Part shown: positions 7,111 through 40,538 of the stretch, piece by piece
How the letters are laid out: each line of letters starts with the position of its first letter
How positions within the stretch are numbered: position 1 is the stretch's first letter
DNA from: Chloroflexota bacterium
GTDB taxonomy: Bacteria > Chloroflexota > UBA6077 > JACCZL01
DNA: 64,000 nucleotides
Reading direction: 5' to 3'
Assembly: GCA_020850535.1 (NCBI GenBank)
Contig: JADZEM010000116.1
Span: 45,419-109,418, forward strand
Translations under genes and position numbers: made by a program
The notes under the pieces: model-generated
Database searches by the model: none
What the model saw: only the letters and a program-made list of their open reading frames with translations
What the model was told of the DNA's origin: nothing

Positions 7111-8697
7111 CTACGGTTTGCGGAGCGGTTCGAGCGGCTCGACGTGTGTGTAGACGTGGTACACAGCGATGGTCTCACGGTCGGCGCGCCCGCCCACGCC
7201 TGCGAGCCGCGCCTGAAACTCGGCGTCGCCGGGCGTGCCCTGCGCGAAGACGAAGGCCGGCCGCTCGGCCACCGAGACCAGATGCGAGTAGACGGCCCGC
7301 CGCCCGAACCCGCTCGACCAGACGGACGGCACGATGCGCTCGCGGCTCTCGAAGGCCAGCGGATACGCCAGCCAGTAGTCGGTATAGATCCGGTCGATGT
7401 CCCGCGCCTGGAGCGCCGCGATCAACTCGGCGCGGTTCGCCGCCGTTGACGCACCGGCGCTCGTCGGCAGCGACAGCCGGTAGTCGCTCGCCAGCAGGCT
7501 ACAGACATTCAACCCGAGCAGCAGCGCCATCAACAGACCGCCGAGGACGCGCCGCCGCCGCCATACCTCCCAGATGATGGCGGTCACCAACGGAGCTGCC
7601 GCGTAGACGGGCAGCGCGTAGCGCGGCTCGGCCCAGAGGTTCGCGAATCGGCTGACGGCGACGAACGGCGGCACCAGCAGGAGTACCAACACGAAGATGG
7701 CCGCTCGGCGGCGCTCGTCCTCGCCACCGGCGACCAGCGCCACCAGCGACCGCCGGTGCCACCAGACGACGCCGAGCGCGAACAACGGGAGCGCCACCGT
7801 CACCAGCCAGCTGCTGCCCGGCCGAGTCGGCCAGTCCAGGGCCAGCAGCTCCCGGGACGGCGTGCCCTCGGCCAGCCCGACCAGCACCGGCAGGCCGTAG
7901 CGGACCAGCCCCCAGAGGTTGACCAGGGCGGCGCGCGGCTCGGTACCGCCCTCGGCGGCGAAGCGGAGGCTCGGGAAACCACCGGCCAGGTTGTGGGCTA
8001 TGGCCGGGCCGAGGCCGATCAGGAAACCGGCCGCCGCCACGCCAAGCGGGAGCGCCAGCCCGACCAGGGCCGTGCGGCTGGCGGCCCACGGTCTGAGCGC
8101 GCCCAGCAGGTAGAGTCCGGCTGCTGCCACCAGCACCGCCGCCATCGGATGGGTCCAGAGCGCCAGCCCGGCCGCCAGCCCGAGCAGTCCCCACCAGCCG
8201 AGGGCGCGCTGGCGCGTGTCCGCTGGCCGGTCAGCCAGCCGCTGGGCGGCCAGCAGACACAGTGTGCCGAGCGCCAGCGCCTCGGGATAGCCGCCTCGGG
8301 CCTTGACGCTCCAGGCCGCGAAGAACGACGGCGGCAGCGCGAGGTACGCAGCACCCAGCAGGGCTGGCCCCGCGCCGAACGCCCCCCGCGCGACGGCGAA
8401 GACGAGGCCGACGAACGCCACGGAGCAGAGGGCCGGCACGAGCTTGAGCGCCCAGGCCGACGGCCCGACGACGGCAAACAGCAGCGCGGCAGTGACCGGC
8501 TCCAGCGTGCCGAGGTAGTGCTGCTCCCAGTAGAACGCCGGCAGCTCCCCGGGCATCTGAAGCGCCATCAATCCGACGACGGCCTCGTCGGCGTCGATCT
8601 CCCCGAACGGGCCTGTAAGCAGCCAGACGCGGAGCCCAAGCCCCGCCAGCAGGATCAGGGCAAGCGCGAGCCGCTCAGTCAGCGTCGCGCGCGTCAC
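7111..8697 (-). CDS. Polytopic membrane glycosyltransferase, GT39/PMT_2 (ArnT/protein-mannosyltransferase-like) family; paralog 1 of 4.
   Basis: About 528 aa from GTG 8697. It has many TM helices (LALALILLAGLGLRVWLL, LLFAVVGPSAWALKLVPALCSVAFVGLVFAV, ...) and a C-terminal soluble domain. It resembles the other three GT39-like proteins in the window. The ORF-track start at 8919 would overlap the ComB-like gene by about 245 nt, so a downstream GTG start is preferred. The start is uncertain. Confidence 0.6.
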   Translation of the reverse strand: MTRATLTERLALALILLAGLGLRVWLLTGPFGEIDADEAVVGLMALQMPGELPAFYWEQHYLGTLEPVTAALLFAVVGPSAWALKLVPALCSVAFVGLVFAVARGAFGAGPALLGAAYLALPPSFFAAWSVKARGGYPEALALGTLCLLAAQRLADRPADTRQRALGWWGLLGLAAGLALWTHPMAAVLVAAAGLYLLGALRPWAASRTALVGLALPLGVAAAGFLIGLGPAIAHNLAGGFPSLRFAAEGGTEPRAALVNLWGLVRYGLPVLVGLAEGTPSRELLALDWPTRPGSSWLVTVALPLFALGVVWWHRRSLVALVAGGEDERRRAAIFVLVLLLVPPFVAVSRFANLWAEPRYALPVYAAAPLVTAIIWEVWRRRRVLGGLLMALLLGLNVCSLLASDYRLSLPTSAGASTAANRAELIAALQARDIDRIYTDYWLAYPLAFESRERIVPSVWSSGFGRRAVYSHLVSVAERPAFVFAQGTPGDAEFQARLAGVGGRADRETIAVYHVYTHVEPLEPLRKP

Positions 8698-9508
8698 CTG
8701 AACCCTGCGCCACCACGACCAGCCGCCCGTCGCGCAGCTCCAGGTGCGGCACCACGGTGGTGACGTCGATCTCCGAGCAGTAGAGCAGGTCGGCCCCGTA
8801 CCCCTTGCTGGGAAGATCGCGTCCGCTTCGCGACTCGGCAAACATGGCGCGGATCGTCTCCGACGAGGCGTGCTTCTCGTGGGGGGCAAGGTACGAGCGG
8901 AACAGCCGGTGGGCCACAATCGCCGAGTCCGACAACCCGAGCGCCATCGGGTCGGTCGCGGCCTCCTCCGGCGGCAGACGGCGCGGGCTGAGCTTCACCA
9001 GTCGCTCGACCAGCATGCCAGCCACAAACGTATCTTCGAGGCTCAGACTGAACGCCCGGTTGTCGCCGGCGCAGAGGATCAGGATGTCCCAGTTGTTCGC
9101 CGTGGCCTCGCGGAGCGCGTGGCGGACCACGGCGACCTCGTTGCGGGGGCTGCCGACCAGCACCAGCGGGGCTTCGGCCACGGCCCGCAGCGCGCCGGTC
9201 CCGTTCGAGGTGACGTAGACGACCTCGCGGCCGGCCAGGTTCGCATCGTCAACCTCGACCGGCGAGTTTCCGAAGTCGAACCCCGGCACCTTCAGCCCGT
9301 CGCGCTCGCCGCAGACCCAGAACTCGTCGCGGCGTCCCTCGGCGATCTCCAGCGCATCCTCCGGCGTCTCCGCCAGCCGCAGCTCGCGTGCGCCCGCCTC
9401 GAACATCGCCAGCATGGTGCTGGACGCCCGCAGCACGTCCAGCATGATGCAGACGCGCCCTTCAACTGACCGAACGCCACGCGCGTTCATCGCCACCGAG
9501 ACGATCAC
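8675..9508 (-). CDS. 2-phosphosulfolactate phosphatase family protein (ComB-like).
   Basis: 277 aa. IMLDVLRASSTMLAMFEAG...VYVTSNGTGAL...ILILCAGDNRAFSLEDTFVAG is the ComB family pattern (DVLRAST). An alternative start is the ATG at 9488 (MNARG...). Confidence 0.7.
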   Translation of the reverse strand: MIVSVAMNARGVRSVEGRVCIMLDVLRASSTMLAMFEAGARELRLAETPEDALEIAEGRRDEFWVCGERDGLKVPGFDFGNSPVEVDDANLAGREVVYVTSNGTGALRAVAEAPLVLVGSPRNEVAVVRHALREATANNWDILILCAGDNRAFSLSLEDTFVAGMLVERLVKLSPRRLPPEEAATDPMALGLSDSAIVAHRLFRSYLAPHEKHASSETIRAMFAESRSGRDLPSKGYGADLLYCSEIDVTTVVPHLELRDGRLVVVAQGSGDARDAD

Positions 9509-9649
9509 CAGACTTGCCCCTTCCTCAGCACGGCTGAGGATACCGGAAACGAGGCGGCCCCCCGGCCGATGACACCGGCCCTCTCGTGGACGCCGCCAGG
9601 ACGCGCGCCAGGCCAGCCCGGGTGTGAGCGGACCTGGCGCAGGCCGCGC

Positions 9650-10882
9650 CTACGAGATCGGCGGGTCGTACTTGAGGCCCATGCCGGTCTGGAACAGCAC
9701 GACCAGCTCGTCGGGCTTGACGAAGCCCGAGGCGACCAGCTTTCTGAGCGCGGCGTAGGTCGCCCCGCCTTCCGGCGCAGCGTAGATGCCGCCGAGCCGG
9801 CCGAGGTCGAGCTGCGCCTCCAGGATCTCGCCCTCGCTGACCGTGAGCGCCGTTCCACCGCTCTCGCGCACAGCGTCCAGGATCAGGTAGTCGCCGATGG
9901 CGACCGGAACGCGCATGCCCGCCGCCGCCGTGTGCGCGTTCTGCCAGAGCTCGGCGTGACGCTCGCCACGGTCGAAGGCCCGCACGATGGGCGCGCAGCC
10001 CTCGGCCTGCACGACGATCATCTTCGGGCGCTTCGGGCCGATCAGGCCCAGCTCCTCCATCTCGGCGAACGCCTTCCACATGCCGACGATGCCGGTGCCG
10101 CCGCCGGTCGGGTAGACGATCGCGTCCGGCAGGGTCCAGCCCAACTGCTCGGCCAGCTCGTACCCCATCGTCTTCTTGCCCTCCTGACGATAGGGCTCCT
10201 TGAGCGTTGACACGTCGAACCAGCCGCGCCGCGGGGCCAGCTCGCGGACCTTCGCGCCGGCGTCGTTGATCAGGCCGTCCACCAGTGTGACGTTCGCGCC
10301 GTACACCAGGCACTCGATGCGGTTGGCGTCTGGCACATCGCGCGGCATGAAGACGTTGACCTCAAGCCCGGCAGCCGCGCCGTACGCCGTGGCTGCCGAG
10401 GCCGCGTTGCCCGCCGACGGCAGCGCGATGGCCTTGACGCCCAGCTCCTTCGCCCGCGAGACCGCACAGCCAAGCCCGCGCGCCTTGAAGGAGCCGGTCG
10501 GGTTCTTCCCCTCGTCCTTGAGCAGCAGCCCGGCCAACCCGAGCGCATCGCCCGCCCGGCGCGCCGGGACCAGCGGCGTCATGCCCTCGCCCAGCGAGAC
10601 CATGTTGGCAGGGTCGCGGACGGGCAGCACTTCCTGGTACCGCCACATGTCCCAGCGCCGCCGCCCCAACGACTCGCGCGTCAACGTGTGCCGGGCACGG
10701 GCCAGATCGTAGCGAGCGTACAGCACCTTGCCGCACGACGCGCAGACCGTTTGCAGGCGATCGGCGTCGTAGCGCTGGTCACAGTACGTGCAGTCCAGGT
10801 GCGTCAGCGTGCTCGGGCCGGCGGGCGTCGGGGAGCCGGCCTGCCCGGAGACGGCGGCAAGGGCATCGCGGAGCGTCGTCAT
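9650..10882 (-). CDS. thrC: Threonine synthase (PLP-dependent).
   Basis: 410 aa from ATG 10882. N-terminal zinc-ribbon-like CTYCDQRYDADRLQTVCASCGKVLYARYDL. PLP lysine context GKNPTGSFKARGLGCAVSRAKELG. The upstream part of the ORF-track (464 aa) lacks homology, so ATG 10882 was chosen. Confidence 0.85.
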   Translation of the reverse strand: MTTLRDALAAVSGQAGSPTPAGPSTLTHLDCTYCDQRYDADRLQTVCASCGKVLYARYDLARARHTLTRESLGRRRWDMWRYQEVLPVRDPANMVSLGEGMTPLVPARRAGDALGLAGLLLKDEGKNPTGSFKARGLGCAVSRAKELGVKAIALPSAGNAASAATAYGAAAGLEVNVFMPRDVPDANRIECLVYGANVTLVDGLINDAGAKVRELAPRRGWFDVSTLKEPYRQEGKKTMGYELAEQLGWTLPDAIVYPTGGGTGIVGMWKAFAEMEELGLIGPKRPKMIVVQAEGCAPIVRAFDRGERHAELWQNAHTAAAGMRVPVAIGDYLILDAVRESGGTALTVSEGEILEAQLDLGRLGGIYAAPEGGATYAALRKLVASGFVKPDELVVLFQTGMGLKYDPPIS

Positions 10883-11064
10883 CGAAAAGCTCCAGGGCGG
10901 GGAGAGTGTGACGAATGATACGCGCCACACCCAGCACGCCTGCCGTGGGAAGGTGGTGGCGCGGTAGAATGCGAGCCGCTGACACGCAAGGGTCGCGAGC
11001 AACAGGCGCACGTGGGGCGGGATCGCCCCGCCGCACGCTCTCACCGAGGAAGGGACGGCGCACC

Positions 11065-11517
11065 ATGCTTCTCGGTCTGCACCACGCTGGCATCACCGTC
11101 TCGGACCTTGACCGAGCCATCGGGTTTTATCGTGACGTGCTCGGCCTGGAGCTGTTCGTCGTCGCCGACCGCGCGGACGAGACTATCGGGCAGATCGTCG
11201 GCTACCGGGGCGCCAGGATCAGGCTGGCGTTCTGTGGCATCCCCGGCGACACTGCCCGCGTCGAGCTGCTCCAGTACCTGCAGCCAACCGGCGCGTCCAA
11301 CGACGGCGAGACGTACCGACCGGCCAGCGGACACGTCTGTTTTCGGGTGGCCGACATCGAGCAGCACTATGCGCGGCTGGTGACCGCCGGGTATGCGCCC
11401 CGCTCCACCGGGCCGGTGACCATCCTCGAAGGGCCGAACACGGGCGCACGTGCCTTCTATGTGCGCGATCCTGACGGCAACACCGTCGAGTTCTTCCAGC
11501 CGCCGCCCGGACGCTGA
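11065..11517 (+). CDS. VOC family protein (glyoxalase / bleomycin resistance / dioxygenase fold).
   Basis: 150 aa. MLLGLHHAGITVSDLDRAIGFYRDVLGLEL...HVCFRVADIE...AFYVRDPDGNTVEFFQ is typical of VOC. The RBS gaggaagg is upstream of ATG 11065. Confidence 0.8.
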   Translation: MLLGLHHAGITVSDLDRAIGFYRDVLGLELFVVADRADETIGQIVGYRGARIRLAFCGIPGDTARVELLQYLQPTGASNDGETYRPASGHVCFRVADIEQHYARLVTAGYAPRSTGPVTILEGPNTGARAFYVRDPDGNTVEFFQPPPGR

Positions 11518-11523
11518 CCGCCG

Positions 11524-13872
11524 GTGATGGACGCGCAGGACGACAGCCCGACCCACCCGCCAGCCACCTCGGCCGAGACGCCAGCCACGCCGGTGGCAGG
11601 CGCGCCAGCGACGGCGAGCGCGCCAGCGTCGAACGCCGGATCCGCCACCGACTCACCAGCGGGGTCGGCCGGGCCTGACGCCGCTGCGCCCGGGCCGATC
11701 GCGCCCGGGCCGATCGCGCCCGGGCCGATCGCGCCCGGGCCGATCGCGCCCGAGCGCGTCCTGCTGGCGTTGCTGCTGGTCGCGGCTGCGCTCGTGCGCC
11801 TCGCCAGCCCCGGCATCTTTGAGCCGAACGTCTCCACGGCTGAGACCGTCCAGCTCGCGGCCGTCGAGGCCATCGCGGCGGATCGCGGGTTCAGCCTGTT
11901 CGGGCAGATGGGGCTGGGCGCATCGGGGCTCGCGCTGCTGCCCGTGACCGTGCTGCGCCTGCTGCGCCCCGAGCCAGAGCTTGCGTTGCGCCTCTACGCC
12001 GCCATCGGCAGCGTGGCGTTCGCCGGACTGTTCTACGCACTCTGCCGGACGCGCTTTGGCGCGGTGGTCAGCCTGACGGCGACGGCGCTGCTGGCGTTCA
12101 GCCCGTGGTCGATCTTCTTCGGACGGAACGGCGAGCTGCAGGCGTTCGCTGGCTGCTGGGCGACCGCCGCGATGCTCCTGCTGCACACCGCGATGCGGCG
12201 CGGCGGCCTGGGGCCGTGGCTCGCCGCCGGCGCGGCCAGCACAGCCGGTCTCTACTGGCATCCCTCGGCGATCTGGACCCTGCCGGTGCTGTGCGTGCCG
12301 GTCGTCTGGATGGCGGCTGTCAACCGCCGCTACCGGTCGCGCCTCTCGGTGGCGCTGTGCTTGCTGCTGGCCGGCGGCCTGCTGGTGGCCGCGCCCCGGG
12401 TTTCGGCGCTGATCTCGGCGCCGCTCTCAACACCCGCCATGCTCGTGGCAGCCGGCGCGCCACTTGACCCGCCCAACACCGTGCGGGCGCGTGCCCAGCA
12501 CCTGATCCGCGCCTTCATCTTCCTGGACCCGAGCGTCCCCGCCGATCAGCGCTACCAGCCGCCAGCTACCGCGCCGCTCGACAGCCTGACCGGCGTGCTG
12601 CTGCTGGCTGGCCTGGGGCTGGCCGCCTGGAAGATGCCATCGCGGGCGCTCCCGCTGGCCGCCCTGCTGATACCGCTGGTCGGCAGTCAGCTGGTCAGCC
12701 CCCGCGTCCCGACGCTTGGGGATGCGCTGGTAGCCCTGCCCGGCCTCTACCTGCTGGTGGCCGAGGCGCTCGAGCGGTTAGTGCTGGTGCTGCCGTTCCC
12801 ATCGATCACCCGGGCCATCCTCCTGGCGGCGATCCCAGCCTACGCCGTGTTCGGCTGGCAGGGGTACGGCGGCTGGATCGGGACGCCGGCCAGCGCACAG
12901 GCCCGCCAGCCCGCCATCGACTATGACGAGATCGACGCCTGGATCGGCGAACTGCAAGCCGGACAGCCAGCGCTGACGGCCAGAGTCTGGCGGGACGAGC
13001 ATCCGCGCCTCTCGACAGGCTCGCGCGTGATCCGCCGGCCGCGTGAGACGGCTGGATCTGCGACGAACACGACGGCGCTGGCGCGACTGGGCCTGCAGCC
13101 GGCCGGGGACGCGCAGGGGGAAGGCGGCGCTCGTGCCGCGCGCACGCTGGCCGCCTCACGGAACGGCGCGGTCTACGCGTCTGACATGACGGGGCACGTG
13201 GCGCGCCTCGACGAGGAACGGCAGCGGCTCACGGCCCTGCAGCAGCGCGCTCCGGCCCTGGAGCAGGTCTCGGACATCGCGGCCGACGCCGACGGGTTCG
13301 TGTACCTCGCCGACTCCGAGCGCTCGCTGATCGTCAAGCTGGCGCCGACCGGCGAGGTCGTGGCGACGCTCGGCGGCGAGTGGGGCATGTACCGCCCTCG
13401 TGGTCTCGCCATCGGGCCAGATGGACGCATCTACGTGGCCGACACCGGCCGCAACCGGCTGGTGATCGGCGAGACCGGCGGCCGGCTCGTCAAGGCCGTC
13501 ACGCCGACGTCGTCGTTCGGGCCGTTCGAGCAGCCGACCGAGGTGGCGGTGGACGCCTCCGGGCGCATCTACGTCGGGCTGCCGGAGATCGGCCGGCTCG
13601 CGATCCTGGACGAGAGCGGCCAGGTGCTGGGCGGCTGGTCGATGGCGAAGGGCAACACCATCGACTCGGCCCGCCTCGCCGTCGTGGCGGACGGCGCGAT
13701 CGCCGTCACCGACCCGCAGGAGTCGAAAGTTCGGCTGCTGGACGCTGACGGTCGCGAGCTGGCGGTGGCCGACGTGCCCGGCAAGCCGTACGGCGTGGCG
13801 TCGGTGGCGGGGCGGCTGTTCGTGGCCGACGCCGCCAGCGGACGGCTGTTCATCTTCGCGCTGGGCCAGTAG
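11524..13872 (+). CDS. Fusion protein: N-terminal GT39/PMT-like polytopic membrane domain plus C-terminal NHL-repeat beta-propeller; paralog 2 of 4.
   Basis: 782 aa. Low-complexity N-terminus with PGPIA x4. The TM-rich region is similar in architecture to the other GT39-like genes. The C-terminus has repeated NHL-like blades: RPRGLAIGPDGRIYVADTGRNRLVI, PTEVAVDASGRIYVG, GVASVAGRLFVADAASGRLFIF. Confidence 0.65.
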   Translation: MMDAQDDSPTHPPATSAETPATPVAGAPATASAPASNAGSATDSPAGSAGPDAAAPGPIAPGPIAPGPIAPGPIAPERVLLALLLVAAALVRLASPGIFEPNVSTAETVQLAAVEAIAADRGFSLFGQMGLGASGLALLPVTVLRLLRPEPELALRLYAAIGSVAFAGLFYALCRTRFGAVVSLTATALLAFSPWSIFFGRNGELQAFAGCWATAAMLLLHTAMRRGGLGPWLAAGAASTAGLYWHPSAIWTLPVLCVPVVWMAAVNRRYRSRLSVALCLLLAGGLLVAAPRVSALISAPLSTPAMLVAAGAPLDPPNTVRARAQHLIRAFIFLDPSVPADQRYQPPATAPLDSLTGVLLLAGLGLAAWKMPSRALPLAALLIPLVGSQLVSPRVPTLGDALVALPGLYLLVAEALERLVLVLPFPSITRAILLAAIPAYAVFGWQGYGGWIGTPASAQARQPAIDYDEIDAWIGELQAGQPALTARVWRDEHPRLSTGSRVIRRPRETAGSATNTTALARLGLQPAGDAQGEGGARAARTLAASRNGAVYASDMTGHVARLDEERQRLTALQQRAPALEQVSDIAADADGFVYLADSERSLIVKLAPTGEVVATLGGEWGMYRPRGLAIGPDGRIYVADTGRNRLVIGETGGRLVKAVTPTSSFGPFEQPTEVAVDASGRIYVGLPEIGRLAILDESGQVLGGWSMAKGNTIDSARLAVVADGAIAVTDPQESKVRLLDADGRELAVADVPGKPYGVASVAGRLFVADAASGRLFIFALGQ
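11693..11755. repeat. In-frame 15-bp tandem repeat (gcccgggccgatcgc) x4 encoding (PGPIA)4 inside the 11524-13872 gene.
   Basis: Four exact direct copies are visible in the sequence at 11693-11755. Confidence 0.9.
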
Positions 13873-13938
13873 GGCCGAGCGTCAGCTTTCGGCGGGCCGA
13901 GCGTCAGCTTTCGGCGGGCCGAGCGTCAGTCCTCGGCG
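13872..13938. repeat. Intergenic 22-bp tandem repeat x3 (gggccgagcgtcagctttcggc; third copy is a variant), each unit hairpin-forming.
   Basis: Seen directly. Copies are at 13872-13893, 13894-13915 and 13916-13938. They lie between convergent genes, and the last copy overlaps the stop of the DUF3090 gene. It probably acts as a tandem terminator. Confidence 0.8.
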
Positions 13939-14466
13939 GCGCGGGCGGCGTGCCCGTTCGAGCGCGGACAGACGTGCTTTCCGGACCCGAGCGGCGCTTC
14001 GCAGGCCGGGCAGCGCGGCCGGCCGGCGGCCAGCAGCGGGACAATCGTCTCGGCCAGCGCCCGCAGCTGCGGACGGGTCGCCTGGCAGCTGAAGCGAGCC
14101 GGACCATCGCCATCGGACTCGACGTCGTGCGCGAGTATCAGGTAGAGCCGCTCGGCCTCGTCGTAGCCGAGCGCAAGCTGCCCGACCTTGAACTCGACGT
14201 CTGGCGAGGCTGCCGCCGCGCCCTCCTGCTGCGGGTTCGACGCCTGACCGCGCGGTGCGGAGGCGCGCAAGTCGAGGGCCGGCAGCCCGGTCAACAGTTG
14301 CTCGATCAGCATCGCGAGGGCCTGTAACTGCTCGCGCTCGACCCACAGCCAGGCCGTCGCGTCGTCACGAATCGCGAGCAGCCGGAACGCGCGCCGCCCC
14401 GGAGGGCCGACCGCGTCTGCCTCAATGCGCACCACGGGACCGAACTCTGTCTGTCCTGACGCCACC
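13926..14466 (-). CDS. DUF3090 family protein.
   Basis: 180 aa from GTG 14466, preceded by the RBS ccaggagg. ...FGPVVRIEADAVGPPGRRAFRLLA...RCPACEAPLGSGKHVCPRSNGH carries the conserved C-terminal Cys/His cluster of DUF3090. The upstream 34 codons of the ORF-track lack an RBS and homology. Confidence 0.7.
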
Positions 14467-14805
14467 TGTTGTCGTGCCTCCTGGTATCGAGCGCGGAAGA
14501 TCAGGATAGCACGCTGCCCGAGGCCAGAGCAGCAACGGCGGGGCGGCAAACGTCCACCTTTGGCCGGCAACGGCCGTTGTCACGGATGAAGCGGCGTCGG
14601 ATCTTGCCTCTCGCGTGCGCGCTTCGCACGGCGACGGGAAACCGAGACGCTCGCATTTGCTACAACAGGGAGCGACTTGTCGCGGCGCAGGGTTGGACAA
14701 CCGCTGGCTGGTGTGGTAACGTAGCCAGCGGCTCGCCTTCCGACTCCCGTGCTGCCCAATTCGAGCCGAAGGAGCGGACCAATAGCACGCTTGACGTTTC
14801 TGTGG

Positions 14806-15669
14806 ATGGCCGCCGTCGTCGCACTGGTCGGCATCCCTCTCACAGCAGTCGCCCAGCAGCTGACTCCACCGGAGCAGCGCATCGTCCAGTTGATCAACCA
14901 GGCGCGTGTGGCGCAGGGCCTCGGCCCGTTGGCGTTGACGCCCGAGTTGAACGCCGCTGCCAAGGGGCACGCACAGGACATGGCGGCGAAGAGCTACATG
15001 GAGCACGAGGGTCTGGACGGCTCGACGCCGCAGTCTCGGGCGCTCAAGGCGGGCTACGGCGCACCGGCCGGCACGGCGTGGCTGGTGCTGGAAGTGATCT
15101 CGGCCCGCCAGACCGCCGAAGCTGCCGCCAACTGGCTCCTCTCTGACCGGCTGCATCGCGGCGTGCTGCTGCGTGGCTACTGGCGCGAGATGGGCGCGGC
15201 CTATGTCGAGGGTGGCCCGTACGGTCAGTTCTGGGTCGTTGAGTTCGGATGCAGGCCGAACGTCCTCCCGATCATCTCCGAGCCGAACACGAGCGGTGGC
15301 GTGACGGTGCGGCTCTCGAATGAAGAGTGCACGCCGGCTGGCTCGACCGAGGCCATCGGCAAGGCGACCGAGGTCATGGTGTCGAACAAGCCGGACTTCG
15401 CTGGCGCGACCTGGGAGCCGTTCGCGACCTCCAAGACGGTGGCCTCCGGCGGCAACGTGTTCGTGCGATACCGCGATGCGAAGGGCCGCGAGACGACAGC
15501 CTCCTCGGGCGGTCAGGGCGGAAGCGCGGTCACCGTGACGGCCGCCTCGGCAGCGACGTCGACGCTCAACCAGGCAGCACCGCCAGCCGGTGGATCAAAC
15601 GAGGCAGAGGACCCGGGCCTGTTCGCCCCGAAGCCGACGTTCGTGTTCCAGCCTGCCACCAGGCCGTAG
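14806..15669 (+). CDS. Secreted CAP (SCP/PR-1-like) domain protein with signal peptide and C-terminal low-complexity tail.
   Basis: MAAVVALVGIPLTAVAQQ signal. CAP-like core ...LNAAAKGHAQDMAAKSYMEHEG...GENI-like...YWREMGAAYVEGGPYGQFWVVEFG. The ORF-track begins at 14749, so the start is uncertain. Confidence 0.65.
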   Translation: MAAVVALVGIPLTAVAQQLTPPEQRIVQLINQARVAQGLGPLALTPELNAAAKGHAQDMAAKSYMEHEGLDGSTPQSRALKAGYGAPAGTAWLVLEVISARQTAEAAANWLLSDRLHRGVLLRGYWREMGAAYVEGGPYGQFWVVEFGCRPNVLPIISEPNTSGGVTVRLSNEECTPAGSTEAIGKATEVMVSNKPDFAGATWEPFATSKTVASGGNVFVRYRDAKGRETTASSGGQGGSAVTVTAASAATSTLNQAAPPAGGSNEAEDPGLFAPKPTFVFQPATRP

Positions 15670-16387: not shown

Positions 16388-16393
16388 GGAGTC

Positions 16394-26524: not shown

Positions 26525-27372
26525 CGGCGCAGCCCCAGGCAGACCCGGCGGCGTCGGTGAAGCGGGACATGCGTGGCGCGTACGATCTCGCCGCGCCACG
26601 CTACGAGCGCCTGATCGCGCCGACGTTCGTGCCCATCGCGCGGCGCGTGGTGTCGCTCGCCCGGCCGCTCAACGACGATATCCACCTGGATCTCGCCACC
26701 GGTACCGGCCTGGTGCCGGCCATGACGGACGACCGACGCACCATCGGCTGCATCGCGCCCTGGCGCGTGGCGATGGACCTCTCGGCCAATATGCTGCGGG
26801 CGGCGCGCCTGGCCTCGCCGCCGACCCGGCTGGTGCAAGGCGATCTGGAGCGGCTGCCGTTCGGCACTGGCGCCATCGATCTGATCACGCTGGCCTTGGC
26901 GCTCCACCACCTGCCGACGCCGCGCCGCGCCCTGGCCGAGCTTCGGCGCATCCTCAGCCCACGCGGTCGGCTGGTGCTGGCGGCCTGGGGCGACGAGCTC
27001 AGCCCCTTGTGGCGCGAGTTCGACCGCTGGTACGGGGCCCAGGGGCTCGGTCCGAGCCGCGCCGCCCCGCCGAACGATCTGCCCATCGACACGCCCGAGC
27101 GGCTGGCGGCGGCCCTCGGCGAGGTCGGCGGCTTCGGCGCGGCTGAGGTGGTCCGCGAGCGCCCGCCGATCCACTTCGCGTCGCTGGCCGAGTTCTGGGA
27201 GTGGCGCATCTCGTTCCCCGCCCCGAACCAGATGTTCGCGCCGATGCCGCCCGACCGGCGGGCGCGCTTGCGTGACGCCTGCCTCGCCGAACTCGCGCCA
27301 CAGGTCACGCTCACCGCCGATGGGCTGATCGACGCATCGCAGGCCGTCCTGTTCGCCGTCGCCCGCCCGTAA
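26521..27372 (+). CDS. Class I SAM-dependent methyltransferase.
   Basis: GTG 26521 overlaps the amidase stop (GTGA). Motif I HLDLATGTGLVPAM; motif post-I LVQGDLERLPFGTGAIDLI. An alternative ATG is at 26569. Confidence 0.65.
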   Translation: MTAQPQADPAASVKRDMRGAYDLAAPRYERLIAPTFVPIARRVVSLARPLNDDIHLDLATGTGLVPAMTDDRRTIGCIAPWRVAMDLSANMLRAARLASPPTRLVQGDLERLPFGTGAIDLITLALALHHLPTPRRALAELRRILSPRGRLVLAAWGDELSPLWREFDRWYGAQGLGPSRAAPPNDLPIDTPERLAAALGEVGGFGAAEVVRERPPIHFASLAEFWEWRISFPAPNQMFAPMPPDRRARLRDACLAELAPQVTLTADGLIDASQAVLFAVARP

Positions 27373-27451
27373 AGCCGGACCGTTTTCGGGGTATCCTCTC
27401 CTGGCCGGTGCGTCTGGCTGGTGTGTAGGTCCGAGCGTCGTCGTCGGGAGG

Positions 27452-27832
27452 GTGCGCGTGAAGATCGGGATTCACCTCGGCAGCAATGGCCCCGCCGCGA
27501 GCGCCGAGTCCATCGGCACGCTCGCCCGCACCGCCGAAACGCTCGGCCTGGACTCGGTCTGGGTCTCCGACCACGTCGCCATTCCGACGGCGATGACGTC
27601 GATGCATCCATACGGTCCGCCCGGCTCGTCCAACCCCGAGGCGACGAAGAACTTCTGGGAGCCGTTCGCCGTCCTGGCGTTCGTGGCCGGCCTGACAACG
27701 CGCGTCGAGCTGGGCACGTCGGTGATCGTGGCGCCGCAACGCCCGCCGCTGCTGATCGCCAAGCAGTGGGCCACGCTCGACGCCATCGAGTTTGTGGCGC
27801 ACGAGGTTCGGCCACACCTGGAGGCCGCATGA
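27452..27832 (+). pseudogene. Truncated LLM-class (luciferase-like / F420- or flavin-dependent) oxidoreductase remnant, 126 aa.
   Basis: The N-terminus MRVKIGIHLGS...TLGLDSVWVSDHV and the C-terminal ...AIEFVAHEVRPHLEAA resemble the termini of LLM enzymes of about 300-350 aa. The middle of the TIM barrel is missing. This is consistent with an internal deletion. Confidence 0.4.
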
Positions 27833-34532: not shown

Positions 34533-34569
34533 CCGACCGTCCCGGCAGGCTCCACGGGGGAGCCTGAAT

Positions 34570-35420: not shown

Positions 35421-36191
35421 CTACGGCATCGAGATCGAGTAGCCACCGTCGACCGGAATGGCCGTGCCGGTGACGTAGTCGCTGGCCGGAGCGGCCAGGA
35501 AGCAGGCCAGACCCGCCAGGTCATACGGTGTGCCCCAGCGGCCGGCGGGAGTCCGCATGTTGACGCGCGCCTCCAGGTCAGTGCGGTACTTGCGCGCGCT
35601 CTGCGTCAGCTCGGTGTCGATCCAGCCGGGCAGGATACAGTTCACCTGGATGTTCTGCTCGGCCCAGGCCACCGCGATGGACCGGCTCCACTGGACCACC
35701 GCTCCCTTGGAGGCGGCGTAGATCGGGCCGTACGGGTGCCCGAGGAAGCTGGCCATCGACCCGATGTTGATGATTTTGCCACCCCCGGCGTCGCGCATCG
35801 GGAAGTAGGCCGCCTGGCAGCAGAGGAAGATCGACGTCATGTTGGTGTTCATCAACTGGTGGTACTCGTCGAGCGTGTACTCCTCGGGCCGCCGCCGGAT
35901 CCCGATGCCGGCGTTGTTCACCATGATGTGCAGGCCGCCCAGCTGATCCACCGTCCGGCTCACCAGCGCCGTCACCTGCTCGGGGACCGTCACATCGCAC
36001 TCGATGGCGATGGCGGCGCCGGCCCGCGTCCGGTTCAACTGCTCGGCGGCCGCTGCCGACTTCTCGGCGTTGCGCCCGGAGACGACAACCGACGCGCCAC
36101 ACTCGACCAGCCCCTGCGCGATGCCGAGGCCAATGCCGCCGTTGCCGCCGGTGACGATGGCCACGCGGCCCGACAGATCGAACAACTTCAT
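35421..36191 (-). CDS. SDR family oxidoreductase.
   Basis: 256 aa from ATG 36191. MKLFDLSGRVAIVTGGNGGIGLG (TGxxxGxG). Catalytic YAASKGAV (YxxxK). Confidence 0.85.
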   Translation of the reverse strand: MKLFDLSGRVAIVTGGNGGIGLGIAQGLVECGASVVVSGRNAEKSAAAAEQLNRTRAGAAIAIECDVTVPEQVTALVSRTVDQLGGLHIMVNNAGIGIRRRPEEYTLDEYHQLMNTNMTSIFLCCQAAYFPMRDAGGGKIINIGSMASFLGHPYGPIYAASKGAVVQWSRSIAVAWAEQNIQVNCILPGWIDTELTQSARKYRTDLEARVNMRTPAGRWGTPYDLAGLACFLAAPASDYVTGTAIPVDGGYSISMP

Positions 36192-36268
36192 GCAACAACT
36201 CCTGTGCGCCGGGGACACAGCCAGCCGGCCGCCCCGACGCGATGGTGCGGTGTGGGCGTCGCCGGCCG

Positions 36269-36733
36269 CTACTCGGCAGGCTCGTCCGGCAGCTTCAGCT
36301 CGCCGCGCGCTTCGAGAACGTCGGCCAGCAGGCCGGCGCCCGTCATAGTGACGGGGAAGCCAGCGTAGACGCCGCAGTGGATCAGCAGCTCGACCAGCTC
36401 ATCCTTGCTGATGCCGACGTTCAGCGCCGCGTGGAGGTGGGTTGTCGCCTCGCGATCCCGCCCGAGCGCCAGCAGCACGCCGCAGGTGATCAGCTCGCGG
36501 TCCCGCTCGCTGAGTCCCGGCCGGTCGAGAATAGTGCCCCAGGCGAACTCGATCAGAACCTTTTCGAGATCCGGGTGGACAGCTTGCAGCATCCGACGGC
36601 GGCGGGTGCCGGCCCCGCCCACGATGCGGTTCCGGCGAGCCAGCCCTCGACGATACGCCTCGGAGTGGCCGTCATCGGCCGGCAGAGCCTGCTGATCGTT
36701 CTCGTCGCTCACGTGCGCCCCCTTGACCAGCAC
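36269..36733 (-). CDS. Carboxymuconolactone decarboxylase (CMD/AhpD-like) family protein.
   Basis: ...DLEKVLIEFAWGTILDRPGLSERDRELITCGVLLALGRDREATTHLHAALNVGISKDELVELLIHCGVYAGFP is a CMD-family core. Confidence 0.7.
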   Translation of the reverse strand: MLVKGAHVSDENDQQALPADDGHSEAYRRGLARRNRIVGGAGTRRRRMLQAVHPDLEKVLIEFAWGTILDRPGLSERDRELITCGVLLALGRDREATTHLHAALNVGISKDELVELLIHCGVYAGFPVTMTGAGLLADVLEARGELKLPDEPAE

Positions 36734-36802
36734 GAGGATCGCAAAGTGAGGCCGCGGGCGGCAACCAGGGGCGAACGCGCAGCCTGGGCGTTCAGGACTC
36801 CG

Positions 36803-37591
36803 TCACGCCCGCACGAACTCCGCTACGGCCTTCGCGAACTCGCGGGGCCGAGAGGCGTGGACCGCGTGGCGCGCCCCCGGAATCGTCAGCAGCGTGCCGT
36901 GCGGGAGCGCATCCACGGCGCGCTGCGCGGCGTCGGCGCTCATGGCTGCGTCGAGGGCCGGATCGGCGGCGATCAGCAAGGTCTCGGCCTGGACGTTCCG
37001 CAGCATCCCGACAACTGACGGGTAGCCTGCCTCGGCGCGCAGCGCTGCCTGAAACGCACCATCGGCGGCCGACCGGTACAGGTCGGCCAGGGCTTTCGCG
37101 TACAGATCGCCGATGCCCGGCTCGCGGCGCAGCAGCTCGTCCTCCAGCGCCCCCGGGCGGCCGTGACGCAGCCGCTCGACCACCTCGATATGCTCGCGGG
37201 AGCGGGTCGGGTCGAATGGAGGATCCACCAGGATCAGCTTGCCGAGCAGCTCCGGGCGCTCGGCGGCCAGTTGCGCGGCGACGACCGCCCCCAGTGAGTG
37301 CCCGATGACGGCCAGCGGGCGCGACGGCTCGTGTGCCAGCAGCGCGGAGATGTCGCCGACGTAGTCACGAGGGAGGTAGCCGGCCGAGGGCTTGTCGCTC
37401 TCGCCGTGACCGCGCAGGTCGGGTGCCACCAGCCGCCCCAGCTCCCCGATCAGCCGTCCGATACCCTGCCAGACCGCCCCTGAGACGCCTAACCCGTGCA
37501 GCAGCACGATCGGAGCGGCGTCCGCGCCGAGCGTGCGGATCATCAGGGTGACCCCACCCACATCTTCGCGGCGGCGCGTCCACGATGCCAT
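36803..37591 (-). CDS. Alpha/beta hydrolase fold protein.
   Basis: PIVLLHGLGVSGAVWQ, nucleophile elbow VIGHSLGAVVA, C-terminal His region. Confidence 0.8.
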   Translation of the reverse strand: MASWTRRREDVGGVTLMIRTLGADAAPIVLLHGLGVSGAVWQGIGRLIGELGRLVAPDLRGHGESDKPSAGYLPRDYVGDISALLAHEPSRPLAVIGHSLGAVVAAQLAAERPELLGKLILVDPPFDPTRSREHIEVVERLRHGRPGALEDELLRREPGIGDLYAKALADLYRSAADGAFQAALRAEAGYPSVVGMLRNVQAETLLIAADPALDAAMSADAAQRAVDALPHGTLLTIPGARHAVHASRPREFAKAVAEFVRA

Positions 37592-37602
37592 AGGAGATGA
37601 TT

Positions 37603-39075
37603 CTAGCGCGCCGGTTCGGCCGGAGCGTGGCCCGGCTCGGCGGCGGGTCGATGGGTGGCGCTCGGTCTCGTCGCCGGCTCGGACGAGCGCGCCGCCGGGC
37701 GCAGCCGCGCCAGGGCGAGCGTTCCGAGGCTCACCAGGCCGGACACACTCACCAGTGCGATCAGCGGATCCTGCGGAAAGCGGTAGCGCAGCTCGCCGCC
37801 GACCAGCGTGGCCGAGCCGCCGATCAGCGCCAGCGTGGCCAGCGCCGGCAGCAGCAGCCAGCGCTGCCCCGGCACGGCGGCGGCGACCACCACCCCGACC
37901 AGAAAGAGCAGCGGGACAGCCGCGCCCCAGCGTGACGGGTCGTAGACCGACAGGATCGCCTGGGCACGGTTCGCGTCGAGCTTGTAGATCGGGGCGCGCA
38001 GGGCCGCTCGCGCCCGCCGCTCGAAGTCGGCATCGGCGACAGGCACCCCCTCGCGTCGAATGTTGATCGGCTCGCCCACCATGATCTCGACGAACGCCTC
38101 AACGGAGCTGGTCGCGAAGTAGACCGGCCGGTTGCGGATCGCCTCGATGGCGAAGCTCTGCATCAGCGGGTACGCTTCGGCGTCGGTCAGGCCGAGGTCG
38201 TCGCGGAAGCGCTGGGCCACCGAGCCCGGTCGGCGCTTGGCGGCCTCCTCCTGCACGATGTTGCGCGCGGCGGTCGTCCGCTCGTCCTCGACCACGCCGG
38301 CCGGCCTCTCGAAGGTGAAGCCGCCGGGGTCCATCTTCAGGGTGCGGGCCAGCAAGAACCGCCCGCCCCCGGCGATGACGAACTGGCCCTGCGTCGCCTT
38401 GTTATAGGCCATCCACGGCACGACCGCGACGAGCGCCAGGGCGGCGAACAGGCCAGCGGCGGCGGCCCGCCTGCGCCAGCCGCCGGGCAGCAGGAGCAGC
38501 ATGCCGAGCGCCAGCGGCGCCAGGATCTGGCCGGACGGCCGACAGAGCACCAGCAGGCCGAACAGCAGCCCTGACGCCGCCGCCCAGCGCAGGCTCGCGC
38601 GCTTCACCAGGAGCAGCAAGCTGCACAGCAGCGCCAGCAGCAAGATGCCGAACGGGATCTCCGTCATGACGTAGTGCTCGTAGAGCAGCAACGGGCCGGA
38701 GATCGCCACCAGCGTCGCCGCGAGCAGGCTCGCCAGCCGGCCGGTCGTGAGACGGCCCAGCGCGTAGGTCAACAGCACCAGCAGCGGCCCGAAGATGACG
38801 TGCTGGACCGTCACGATCTTCTGAAGATCCTCGCCCACGAACGAGATCACGCCGGCCAGGAACAGCGGGTAGGTCGGCGTGCGCCGCAGGCCGAGTTCGA
38901 AGCCGTCGCCGTAGACGAGGTTCCTCGCCGGCACGTAGTAGCCGGCGCTGTCGGGGTTCAACATCGGGGGTACGACCCCGTAGAAGGCCAGCCGCGCGCC
39001 GATGCACAGCGCCAGCAGCAGTCCCAGCGCGAGGATGTCCAGGCGAGACCCAGCCGCCAACGCCGCCAGCCTCAC
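37603..39075 (-). CDS. GT39/PMT_2-like polytopic membrane glycosyltransferase; paralog 3 of 4.
   Basis: About 490 aa from GTG 39075, which overlaps the stop of the upstream paralog (GTGA). N-terminal TM region with YGDGFELGLRRTPTYPLFLAG. Confidence 0.65.
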   Translation of the reverse strand: MRLAALAAGSRLDILALGLLLALCIGARLAFYGVVPPMLNPDSAGYYVPARNLVYGDGFELGLRRTPTYPLFLAGVISFVGEDLQKIVTVQHVIFGPLLVLLTYALGRLTTGRLASLLAATLVAISGPLLLYEHYVMTEIPFGILLLALLCSLLLLVKRASLRWAAASGLLFGLLVLCRPSGQILAPLALGMLLLLPGGWRRRAAAAGLFAALALVAVVPWMAYNKATQGQFVIAGGGRFLLARTLKMDPGGFTFERPAGVVEDERTTAARNIVQEEAAKRRPGSVAQRFRDDLGLTDAEAYPLMQSFAIEAIRNRPVYFATSSVEAFVEIMVGEPINIRREGVPVADADFERRARAALRAPIYKLDANRAQAILSVYDPSRWGAAVPLLFLVGVVVAAAVPGQRWLLLPALATLALIGGSATLVGGELRYRFPQDPLIALVSVSGLVSLGTLALARLRPAARSSEPATRPSATHRPAAEPGHAPAEPAR

Positions 39076-40538
39076 GTGCCCGATCCGCTCGCCTGGGCGA
39101 CGGCCGGCGACGTCGGGGTCGTGGGTCGGTGAACACGCGTGGCGAGCGCTCCCACCAGGGACGTCAGCCCGCCGGCCGCCAGCACGTTGATGAGCGGGTC
39201 CAGCGGGAAGCGGTACCGCCATTCGATGCCGATCAGCGCCGCGCCGGCCAGCAGCAGCCCGTAGACCAGGACGCCGACCATCACGGCATCCCATCGACGC
39301 TGGCGGGCGGCCAGCACGATGCCGAGCAGGCTCAGCAGGGCCAGGGCCGGCGCGAAGGGGGCCGGATCGTAGAGTGTGGCCAGCCGCTCGGCGGTGGTGA
39401 AGCTGCGCGCCTCGACGGGGGTCGGCTCTGGCAGGAGATGCTGGACGCGCTCCTCCCAGGCGATGTTCCGCCAGGGGAGCCAGTCCTGCCGCAGGCGGAC
39501 CGGCCGACCCACGAAGGTCTGCACGAACATATCCGCCGTGCCCAGCAGGTAGTAGCCCGGCTGCTTCAGGATCGCTTGCAGCGCGAACGTCCGCATGAAG
39601 CGCTCGGCCTCGATCTCGGTGATGCCAAGCTCGACGCGCAGGCGCTTCGCCAACTCGAACGCCGAGCCGTCCTCAGCCTCGTCACGGTAGATGCTGCGCG
39701 CCCGCGAGGTCAGCCGATCAGGGTCACCGCCGGGCGGCGCTTTGAAGTCGAACTTCTGCTCGTAGCGGATCGTTCGGACGGCCAATCCTTCGCCCGAGCC
39801 GCCGGCGATGGCGAACGTCCCCTGCACGGCCTGGTTGCGGAGCATCCAGGGCAGCGCCACCAGCACGAACACGGCGGCCAGCAGGCCAGCGCCGAGCAGG
39901 GCCGGCCGCCAGCGCGGCAGGAGCAGCGGCAAGGCCGCCAACAGCAACGCCAGAACCACCTGCGCGATGGGGCGCGTCAGCGCGGCCAGCGACAGCAGCA
40001 CGCCCGCGAGCGCCAGCAGCCAGAGCCTCGTCGTCAGGCGTTCGACGCGGAGAGCGCCCAGGTAGGTCAGCAGGCTCCCCGCCAGCAGGAGGCCGAACAG
40101 GGTCTCGCTCATCAGGTAGTGCTCGGTGACGATCAGCGGGCCGCTGAGGGCGGTCAGCAATGCCGCCAGCAGGCCAGCACTGGCGCCGAACAGCAGCCGG
40201 CCGATGCCGAACGTCAGCAGCACCGTGCCGACGCCCATCAGGTGCTGCACGAGCATCAGCACCCGCAGCTCCTCGCCGAACGCGGCGATCACCCCGCCGA
40301 TGAACAGCGAGTAGAGCGGCGGACGCTTGAGGATCGGCGCGAACGTGCCGCCATGCACGAGGTCGAAGCCCGGCAGCAGATAGCTGAGACTGTCGTTGGT
40401 GACAAACGGCGGCGCGCGAAACGAGAACGCCACTCGCAGGCCCAACGCCAGCAGCACGATGGCCGCGAGCAGCAGCCAGACGACCCGTCCCTCAGGCAGG
40501 CCCGCCCAGGGCCGGCCAGAACCGGCCGGCCTGGACAT
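39072..40538 (-). CDS. GT39/PMT_2-like polytopic membrane glycosyltransferase; paralog 4 of 4.
   Basis: About 488 aa from ATG 40538 (MSRPAGSG...). LVHGGTFAPILKRPPLYSLFIGG parallels the paralog downstream. There are many TM helices. Confidence 0.65.
   Translation of the reverse strand: MSRPAGSGRPWAGLPEGRVVWLLLAAIVLLALGLRVAFSFRAPPFVTNDSLSYLLPGFDLVHGGTFAPILKRPPLYSLFIGGVIAAFGEELRVLMLVQHLMGVGTVLLTFGIGRLLFGASAGLLAALLTALSGPLIVTEHYLMSETLFGLLLAGSLLTYLGALRVERLTTRLWLLALAGVLLSLAALTRPIAQVVLALLLAALPLLLPRWRPALLGAGLLAAVFVLVALPWMLRNQAVQGTFAIAGGSGEGLAVRTIRYEQKFDFKAPPGGDPDRLTSRARSIYRDEAEDGSAFELAKRLRVELGITEIEAERFMRTFALQAILKQPGYYLLGTADMFVQTFVGRPVRLRQDWLPWRNIAWEERVQHLLPEPTPVEARSFTTAERLATLYDPAPFAPALALLSLLGIVLAARQRRWDAVMVGVLVYGLLLAGAALIGIEWRYRFPLDPLINVLAAGGLTSLVGALATRVHRPTTPTSPAVAQASGSGT

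Follow-up and report, generated by a model that had tools for sequence, protein, structure and literature searches.

Four genes for predicted multi-pass membrane glycosyltransferases lie within 33 kb of a 64,000-nucleotide stretch of DNA (hereafter, the window), the source of which is a high-GC Chloroflexota MAG. The first-pass annotation had read them as four paralogs of GT39/PMT or ArnT type and as a local expansion serving glycosylation. We asked which family these genes belong to, how closely they are related, and whether their proximity reflects one functional region.

Results

Gene set and fold

The four open reading frames, here named G1 to G4, were all present in the sequence (Table 1). 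The proposed size of 490-530 aa was right for G1 (528), G3 (490) and G4 (488), but not for G2 (782 aa). G1 is identical to NCBI protein P0127, and NCBI names all three of the genes checked (G1, G2 and G3) "glycosyltransferase family 39 protein". The NCBI version of G3 has 485 aa versus 490 aa here; a TTG five codons downstream of the GTG yields 485 aa, so PGAP probably starts there. A search of the six-frame ORFs of the window gave no further members of the G1, G2 or G3/G4 subfamilies, and the other called ORFs scanned against Pfam gave no match to PMT_2.

Table 1 Genes and features of the locus (nt, position in the window; aa, residue of the protein)
Feature	Position	Strand	Remarks
G1	7111-8697	-	528-aa PMT_2/GT-C membrane protein, canonical DE motif; PMT_2 47.6 bits
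G1 C-terminal soluble domain	aa 407-528, nt 7114-7479	-	~120 aa
G1 D37-E38 codons	8584-8589	-	putative catalytic DE motif (EIDADEAVVG), first extracytoplasmic loop
ComB-like gene	8675-9508	-	2-phosphosulfolactate-phosphatase family; PF04029 180 bits
Threonine synthase (thrC)	9650-11044	-	first gene of thrC-comB-G1 unit, divergent from G2; NF006050 597 bits vs 303-bit cut-off
G2	11524-13872	+	782-aa fusion: disordered N-tail, GT-C membrane domain, linker, NHL propeller; PMT_2 33.1 bits
G2 disordered N-tail	aa 1-75	+	predicted cytoplasmic
Perfect 15-bp x 4.5 tandem repeat	11686-11752	+	encodes GPIAP x4 in G2 N-tail; TRF, 100% matches
G2 GT-C membrane domain	aa 76-452, nt 11749-12879	+
G2 A106-E107 codons	11839-11844	+	D-E in wider family
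G2 linker	aa 453-523	+
G2 six-bladed NHL beta-propeller	aa 524-782, nt 13093-13869	+	predicted extracytoplasmic
SDR gene	35421-36218	-	after CMD; generic SDR matches
CMD gene	36269-36733	-	after hydrolase; PcaC-like matches
Alpha/beta-hydrolase gene	36803-37591	-	11 nt downstream of G3; NCBIfam PcaD-like matches
G3	37603-39075	-	490-aa GT-C membrane protein; downstream half of tandem pair; PMT_2 35.7 bits
G3 all-alpha extracytoplasmic domain	aa 230-383, nt 37927-38388	-	predicted; between TM7 and TM8
G3 D42-S43 codons	38947-38952	-	invariant Asp directly before first juxtamembrane helix
G4	39072-40538	-	488-aa G3 paralog; upstream half of tandem pair; PMT_2 34.6 bits
G4 D49-S50 codons	40389-40394	-
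SufT-like Fe-S assembly gene	40594-40944	-	55-nt gap upstream of G4; PF01883 68 bits; conserved in L001-L004

All four proteins scored above the gathering score of Pfam PMT_2 (PF13231; 26.1 bits). Structure models (AF2) were made for G2 and G3 and supply the fold evidence. The G2 membrane domain and G3 matched solved GT-C enzymes at 10-18% identity; the best structural match of G3 was ArnT, and for the G2 membrane domain Pmt4 and ALG12 ranked equal first among GT-C enzymes. The PMT_2 scores and fold matches thus identify GT-C-fold polytopic membrane proteins, as first supposed, and not transporters. Topology was taken from DSSP helices of the models, read by eye, together with the positive-inside rule, and G3 was read as having ~10 TM helices.

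GT-C enzymes are described as typically having a catalytic Asp behind TM1 and a DE motif (PMC11127046; PMC8698208; PMC12705809). The corresponding Asp in the predicted first extracytoplasmic loop was present in G1 (D37), G3 (D42) and G4 (D49), while G2 has A106. In alignments, D37 and E38 of G1 were invariant across 44 homologs, the DE motif being kept also in the G1 ortholog of locus L006, and D42 of G3 was invariant in 39 sequences, G4 included; in the G3 model the helix that follows spans residues 43-54.

G2 carries an NHL propeller and lacks the DE-motif Asp

A fusion to an NHL beta-propeller had been claimed for one of the four genes, and G2 indeed carries PF01436 repeats forming six blades at aa 524-782. 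The GPIAP tandem repeat of its N-tail was found in none of the G2 orthologs compared. At the sites of G2 A106 and E107, 59 other representatives of the wider family had D in 97% and E in 100%. Position 106 was A, V, I or G, never D, in 30 orthologs of G2, and this group without the Asp appears, on sequence comparison, to be a mildly novel point. E107 and most other family-invariant residues were kept, and the orthologs had a mean column identity of 66%. An hhalign register pairing G2 S104-T105 with G1 D37-E38 was rejected as off by two, because the 77-sequence family alignment sets D-E at 106-107.

Since G2 lacks the canonical DE-motif Asp, transferase activity is not to be assumed. G2 could be a GT-C-derived membrane protein without transferase activity. 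Its NHL propeller would then bind a ligand outside the cytoplasm, and G2 would serve as a sensor or help its neighbour G1 by recruiting acceptors. We consider this unlikely, though worth weighing: the retained E107, the other conserved invariant residues and the column identity fit a working active site. The DE-motif Asp is reported as essential in S. coelicolor Pmt and ArnT (PMC8698208). The D113N variant of S. coelicolor Pmt is active and DE mutants of Mtb Pmt are partially active (PMC8698208), so the Asp is not absolutely required, which also speaks against a non-transferase G2.

Our preferred account leaves both outcomes for G2: with the same fold and Ala at the Asp site, it would be an enzyme that works with Glu alone or by an altered mechanism, or else a binding partner without catalysis. 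We put forward, as a rather speculative proposal, that the G2 group permanently exchanged the hallmark Asp for Ala, Val, Ile or Gly, remained under strong purifying selection, and became a non-canonical transferase, or else a non-catalytic subunit whose PknD-like propeller recruits or senses the acceptor. If G2 is a non-catalytic subunit, it would work together with G1, the enzyme with the canonical DE motif, adjacent to G2 in five genomes. The propeller of PknD is not known to have an established ligand. In PknD (M. tuberculosis; sensor domain, PDB 1RWI) the propeller is carried by a Ser/Thr kinase, whereas that of G2 is carried by a GT-C membrane domain.

The four genes probably fall outside GT39 and GT83

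Assignment to GT39/PMT or to ArnT (GT83) was not supported. PF02366, PMT_4TMC and MIR were absent at E<=1 in all four proteins, and at that threshold their membrane parts matched PMT_2 only, apart from weak matches to STT3 and DUF6057. The ArnT equivalog NF009784 was matched by G4 only (10.2 bits, E 0.21; cut-off 567 bits). No match to solved PMT or ArnT chains was obtained with phmmer, and phmmer and profile searches of PDB sequences found no GT-C relatives except AglB, weakly (E 0.0035; G1 and G3/G4 profiles). That the four are nevertheless genuine GT39 protein O-mannosyltransferases, as the NCBI names imply, or lipid A-modifying ArnT orthologs is improbable. The DE motif of G1 is PMT-style, and ArnT and Pmt4 are top or joint top structural matches, but these matches are at low identity and the family models are missing or far below cut-off. 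The general view is that Chloroflexota lack lipid A, and a lipid A acceptor is unlikely.

Comparison with known systems showed further differences. ArnT (GT83; Cupriavidus metallidurans, PDB 5F15/5EZM; 14% identity) has a C-terminal periplasmic domain, whereas in G3 an all-alpha domain is predicted between TM7 and TM8. The PMTs (GT39; yeast Pmt1/2/4 and bacterial Pmt of Mycobacterium and Streptomyces; 10-12% identity) carry a beta-trefoil, in contrast to the NHL propeller, alpha-helical insert or small C-terminal domain found here, and G2 differs from them also by its Ala at the site of the DE Asp. GT136 ORF12 (Kelly et al. 2024) is an 11-TM GT-C enzyme whose catalytic Asp follows TM1 and whose C-terminal domain is beta-rich and binds the substrate; it performs extracytoplasmic post-polymerisation glycosylation (PMC11127046). 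In function, G1 and G2 may best be compared with its three-component system, although GT136/Gtr-type loci encode a polyprenyl-P-sugar synthase and a flippase beside the GT-C gene, and neither is adjacent to G1-G4. The family model of Leptospira LA_3751/LA_3752 matched G3 weakly (E 4e-4, 19 bits vs a 200-bit cut-off).

Kinship and gene order

The description as four paralogs was correct for G3 and G4 (39% identity, E 8e-68, BLASTP), but G1 and G2 were undetectable against G3/G4 by BLASTP or phmmer. The early loop motif said to be common to all four was likewise absent from G1 and G2, and stood at aa 54-76 of G3 and aa 61-83 of G4. G1 and G2 shared one 27-residue patch (E 7e-4), and family HMMs of the G1, G2 and G3/G4 subfamilies did not detect one another at E<=10. 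Only in profile-profile comparison were the families connected, through their N-terminal core (probabilities of 95%, 96% and 54%). By these sequence comparisons, G1 and G2 are separate old PMT_2 subfamilies, very distant from G3/G4.

G4 and G3 form a tandem pair with a GTGA overlap, as proposed: the G4 stop TGA (39074-39072) lies over the G3 GTG start (39075-39073). Separate orthologs of G3 and of G4 occur in four other MAGs (L001-L004; 53-80% identical); because each copy keeps its own ortholog, the duplication is ancient. Judged from sequence, the two genes are translationally coupled products of this duplication, and no other expansion is seen among the four. Like EmbA-EmbB of mycobacteria, Pmt1-Pmt2 and the LA_3751/LA_3752 family, they are adjacent paralogs; the coupled G4-G3 pair is kept together in five genomes. 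Heterodimeric GT-C pairs provide a precedent (EmbA-EmbB, PDB 7BVF; Pmt1-Pmt2, PDB 6P2R; PMC12705809).

The SufT-like gene upstream of the pair matched TIGR03406 and TIGR02945 below their cut-offs. Downstream, the hydrolase is kept beside G4-G3 in L001, L002 and L004, CMD in L002 and L003, and SDR in L002-L004; these three genes are probably co-transcribed with G3, without a link to glycosylation. A role of the SDR as a DprE2-like epimerase subunit was considered and rejected, the protein being a generic glucose-1-dehydrogenase/FabG-like SDR.

The comB-like gene shares the 23 nt of its 3' end with the beginning of G1, with the same overlap by coordinates in related loci, and the two genes share one operon. 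A PALP-family gene 82-89% identical occupies the thrC position in L005 and L006, and PALP genes stand there in the other compared loci. This arrangement, thrC-comB-like-G1 with divergent G2 (Module A), is kept in four other contigs, down to ~50% G2 identity. In L005, another GT-C gene lies <10 kb from the G1 homolog.

The genes lying among the four, including those that separate Module A from the G4-G3 pair (Module B), are unrelated housekeeping genes (threonine synthase, GGT, DHPS-HPPK, peptidases, amidase and others). Next to the four genes, where thrC, comB-like, PCMT, DUF3090, SufT-like, hydrolase, CMD and SDR genes were seen, no polyprenyl-P-sugar synthase or flippase was found; a coherent glycosylation region is not supported. 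The only GT2 of the window (49662-50648) was rejected as such a synthase, being soluble and without TM helices. In Chloroflexi, genes of GT83 type make up one of the most abundant GT families (PMC6306507). We found no evidence that the 33-kb clustering exceeds chance, and argue that the proximity is coincidental. A local expansion of paralogs that together serve glycosylation as one functional region, with diversified acceptors, might explain four PMT_2 genes within 33 kb, one true duplication and a Wzm/Wzt polysaccharide cluster 4 kb beyond G4, also found in L001. We hold it to be very improbable, given the undetectable pairwise homology of G1, G2 and G3/G4, the intervening genes, and the separation of the two modules onto different contigs in the related MAG GCA_046328125.1. 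The Wzm/Wzt neighbourhood is missing in L003 and L004, and this cluster was rejected as a stable partner of G4-G3, since outside the window it stands next to the pair only in L001.

Discussion

The idea that the four match PMT_2 by chance, being polytopic transporters or membrane proteins of some other non-GT kind, could draw on the modest scores (33-48 bits) of hydrophobic, compositionally biased sequences, but it has negligible probability and is effectively refuted by the fold searches. The account that we consider likely as a whole is that of four GT-C genes from three mutually very distant subfamilies, in two independently conserved modules (thrC-comB-like-G1 with divergent G2, and SufT-like-G4-G3-hydrolase with its coupled tandem) that came to lie ~24 kb apart by chance, with G1, G3 and G4 as extracytoplasmic transferases.

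G1, G3 and G4 would be proteins of the cytoplasmic membrane whose N-terminus faces the cytoplasm. By analogy with all characterised GT-C enzymes, the donor is most likely a polyprenyl-phosphate-linked sugar on the outward-facing side of this membrane. Each enzyme would take the sugar from a polyprenyl-phosphate-sugar flipped to that side and pass it to a protein or a cell-wall glycopolymer as the extracytoplasmic acceptor, with the invariant Asp just after TM1 (D37-E38, D42 and D49, respectively) as the putative catalytic residue. Acceptor choice may be set by the extracytoplasmic domains, namely the C-terminal domain of G1, the all-alpha insert of G3/G4 and the NHL propeller of G2. Because these domains differ, the diversified acceptor specificity first suggested for the four is plausible.

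The four genes are ordinary members of a very large, already annotated superfamily that is abundant in the phylum; we found no literature specific to GT-C or protein glycosylation in Chloroflexi. The routine "GT39" label is corrected here, as none of the four qualifies as GT39 or GT83. The two conserved modules and their invariant residues are targets for study of the poorly known Chloroflexota cell envelope. Were G2 a non-catalytic subunit, its pairing with G1 would parallel, in bacteria, the cooperation of MIR domains in trans seen in Pmt1-Pmt2. The PMT_2-NHL clade without the Asp, if pseudo-enzyme or non-canonical, would inform on GT-C acceptor selection and on the requirement for the DE motif.

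Identification and family assignment of four PMT_2 genes

With G+C making up about 70% of the window, ORFs were selected by their GC content at third codon positions. The results showed four membrane glycosyltransferase genes, G1–G4, all exceeding the PMT_2 (PF13231) gathering score of 26.1 bits, and the Pfam scan returned no transporter-family match for any of them. The GT-C fold and family proposed in the first-pass annotation are correct. The same scan found none of the features expected of GT39 (PF02366, PMT_4TMC, MIR), the ArnT/GT83 equivalog model scored 10 bits against a cut-off of 567 bits, and a three-component gene organisation was absent. The stop codon of G4 (TGA, 39074–39072) shares bases with the GTG at 39075–39073, so the G3/G4 tandem with a GTGA overlap is real. 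We looked up G1, G2, and G3 in NCBI, and each was 100% identical to a protein from a 'Chloroflexi bacterium' MAG, where all three lie on one contig of 110,833 bp; the NCBI version of G3 has 485 aa, the length that a start at the TTG five codons downstream of the GTG would give. All three are named 'glycosyltransferase family 39 protein', a generic label that they have not earned. Nearly all homologs came from Chloroflexota MAGs and metagenomes. The four genes are unremarkable members of the GT-C group, uncharacterised but with annotations already in place.

Features of the window and their coordinates
Feature	Position	Strand	Length	Profile match
G1	7111–8697	−	528 aa	PMT_2 (PF13231), 47.6 bits
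G2	11524–13872	+	782 aa	PMT_2 (PF13231), 33.1 bits
G3	37603–39075	−	490 aa	PMT_2 (PF13231), 35.7 bits
G4	39072–40538	−	488 aa	PMT_2 (PF13231), 34.6 bits
thrC, comB-like gene, G1	7111–11044	−		
thrC	9650–11044	−		NF006050, 597 bits (cut-off 303 bits)
Tandem repeat in G2	11686–11752	+	15 bp × 4.5	
DUF3090 and CAP-domain genes	13926–15669			
Luciferase-like ORF	27329–27832	+	167 aa	Only positions 17–94 of 314-position luciferase-like monooxygenase profile
Second threonine-synthase-like gene	43006–44370	−		204 bits (threonine synthase cut-off 303 bits)
Wzm/Wzt-type cluster	44683–57297	+		
First large soluble protein	50629–52347			Capsule_synth only, sub-threshold
Second large soluble protein	53269–55059			No Pfam or NCBIfam match

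The luciferase-like ORF may derive from a longer gene by truncation or a frameshift.

Relatedness of G1–G4

G3 and G4 share 39% identity over their full length (BLASTP, E 8e-68) and detected each other with phmmer. The similarity between G1 and G2 was one 27-residue patch (E 7e-4), and neither had detectable similarity to G3 or G4. Searches with the family HMMs against the other genes of the window gave no cross-detection even at E ≤ 10 and added no members. Profile–profile comparison of the family alignments around G3/G4 (A1), G2 (A2), and G1 (A3) linked A1 to A3 with 95% probability over 220 columns, A2 to A3 with 96% over 327 columns, and A1 to A2 with 54%, all confined to the N-terminal core. 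Since only G3 and G4 are mutually recognisable and the HMMs do not cross-detect, G1–G4 fall, as judged from these comparisons, into three old and distant PMT_2 subfamilies, one of which contains a true duplication (G3/G4). An expansion of four paralogs, as first suggested, was therefore not borne out, and the loop motif said to be common to all four occurs in G3 (aa 54–76) and G4 (aa 61–83) and is missing from G1 and G2.

Gene neighborhoods and clustering

In module A, G1 belongs to a conserved unit in which thrC and a gene of the ComB family (2-phosphosulfolactate phosphatase-like) run in the same direction. The comB-like gene and G1 overlap by 23 nt in the window, an overlap present in 3 of 5 genomes, and a PCMT gene flanks G1. 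To our knowledge, ComB-like phosphatases have not been functionally linked to GT-C enzymes. G2 is divergent from this unit and is followed by the DUF3090 and CAP-domain genes. Four other Chloroflexota contigs, including loci L005 and L006, also carry module A, with lowest identities of about 50% for G2 and 61% for G1. The DUF3090 gene and the gene for a secreted CAP-domain protein (cysteine-rich secretory protein family) directly adjoin G2 in all five genomes (L005, 3139–4887; L006, 12321–14091); it is conceivable that the CAP protein is an extracytoplasmic partner or acceptor.

Module B lies on one strand and comprises SufT-like, G4, G3, alpha/beta-hydrolase, CMD, and SDR genes with gaps of ≤69 nt. 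The arrangement recurs in four loci of other MAGs, L001–L004, with the hydrolase match lacking in L003, CMD in L001 and L004, and SDR in L001. Separate orthologs of G4 (58–80% identity) and G3 (53–74%) are present in these loci. The SDR downstream of G3 was rejected as a DprE2-like epimerase subunit, being generic.

No polyprenyl-phosphate-sugar synthase or flippase gene adjoins G1–G4 in the window, and its only GT2 was rejected as such a synthase, being soluble. Module B is adjoined, in the window and L001, by an ABC-transporter-dependent (Wzm/Wzt-type) polysaccharide cluster (44.7–57.3 kb), which is absent beside it in L003 and L004. This cluster encodes ABC2_membrane and ABC_tran proteins (the latter with a weakly Wzt_C-like, sub-threshold C-terminus), two FkbM methyltransferases and a further methyltransferase, two GT4s, the soluble GT2, and two large soluble proteins; only L001 shares the genes for Wzm, Wzt, and the first FkbM protein with the window. 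The nearby second threonine-synthase-like PLP enzyme is 34% identical to ThrC and probably has another function, since it scores under the threonine synthase cut-off; its gene adjoins a CoA-transferase gene, as in L001.

The 24 kb between the modules encodes GGT, DHPS-HPPK, M1 peptidase, DUF711, amidase, methyltransferases, an S8 subtilase, a LysM protein, and others. A single glycosylation region is made unlikely by these unrelated genes and by MAG GCA_046328125.1, which has module A on JAXLXF010000005 but module B on JAXLXF010000007. In Chloroflexi genomes, GT83-type genes have been reported as one of the most abundant GT families (PMC6306507; also listed in PMC11650866), and L005, from the same MAG, has a further GT-C gene <10 kb from its G1 homolog. 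Given the separate contigs, the abundance of GT83-type genes, and this extra gene, four PMT_2 genes in 33 kb are best read, by argument rather than statistic, as the proximity of two conserved but unrelated modules within a genome rich in GT-C genes. The extra gene (L005, 20054–21590, running off the locus, about 10 kb from the G1 homolog) encodes a predicted 1355-aa fusion of YfhO-type GT-C and Polysacc_synt/MurJ-type flippase domains, which would join flippase and GT-C in a single protein.

Predicted topology of G3 and G2

Sequence searches did not reach solved GT-C enzymes, except for a weak match between A1 and AglB (E 0.0035). Topology was predicted by reading the model helices together with the Arg/Lys distribution in short loops. 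For G3, this gives an inside N-terminus and 10 TM helices; the first outer loop holds two juxtamembrane helices (aa 43–54 and 68–80), and an all-alpha extracytoplasmic domain of ~150 residues (aa 230–383) is placed between TM7 and TM8. G2 (model pLDDT 81.2; residues 1–70 disordered) is likewise predicted to be N-in, with 11 TM helices, a disordered, Pro/Ala-rich cytoplasmic N-tail of 75 residues, and an outside part made of a linker (aa 453–523) and a propeller (aa 524–782). The reported NHL fusion is indeed present in G2, with NHL repeats at 68.8 bits and C-terminal matches to PknD-derived 'Pizza' propellers and PknD (E 2.7e-28 to 2.4e-16). The perfect tandem repeat in G2 encodes four copies of GPIAP in the N-tail; it was found in 0 of 30 G2 orthologs and is therefore a recent expansion specific to this genome.

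Catalytic motif and proposed functions

GT-C enzymes carry a catalytic Asp directly after TM1, often within a 'DE' motif (PMC11127046; PMC12705809). In S. coelicolor Pmt, function is abolished by D113A but not by E114A, and D113N is active but D113E inactive; ArnT is inactive when D55 is substituted, and activity is partly retained in DE mutants of Mtb Pmt (PMC8698208). D37-E38 of G1, within 'EIDADEAVVG', is invariant in A3, and D42-S43 of G3 and D49-S50 of G4, directly before the first juxtamembrane helix of the model, are invariant in A1. G1, G3, and G4 are probably inverting transferases using polyprenyl-phosphate-sugar on the outward-facing side of the membrane, and would act on proteins or on glycopolymers of the wall, picked by differing soluble domains. 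G4 and G3 have stayed together as a coupled pair, which suggests that they may carry out successive steps on a single acceptor or form a putative heterodimer, for which EmbA–EmbB and Pmt1–Pmt2 are precedents.

The G2 membrane-domain family is small (189 representatives at E ≤ 1e-3, exhaustive search), and a G2-like propeller is present in 38 of the best 150. Its motif is 'P-x-N-V-T-A-D-E-A-D-N', with Asp 97% and Glu 100% conserved in 59 other full-length representatives. In G2 (S104-T105-A106-E107) and its closest representatives, the Asp position is Ala or Val. Across 30 G2 orthologs (A2), position 106 was A (18), V (8), I (3), or G (1) and never D, and E107 was conserved in 30/30. G2 keeps the family-invariant residues R92, R156, R175, R201, Y244, P291, R343, Y344, D353, P396, W451, R461, and P463, with changes at S200G, R400D, G149P, W204E, and Y246H. 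Because most invariant residues are kept and mean column identity in A2 is 66%, the Asp replacement looks like a fixed, selected change rather than decay.

The PMT_2 plus NHL-propeller architecture is old and recurrent (NCBI proteins P0121, P0124, and P0126; the 38 of the best 150 representatives). It is also combined with PA14 domains in Anaerolineae and found in Agl23/TIGR03663-labelled proteins of Dehalococcoidia and Acidobacteria; these distant versions mostly keep the DE motif.

G2 could be an enzyme that depends on Glu or works by an altered mechanism, or else a partner or sensor that bears the propeller and has no catalytic role. A G1–G2 partnership is conceivable because the adjacency of the two genes is conserved. 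The loss of the DE-motif Asp, fixed in the NHL-fused clade, is the sole feature of these genes that merits follow-up.
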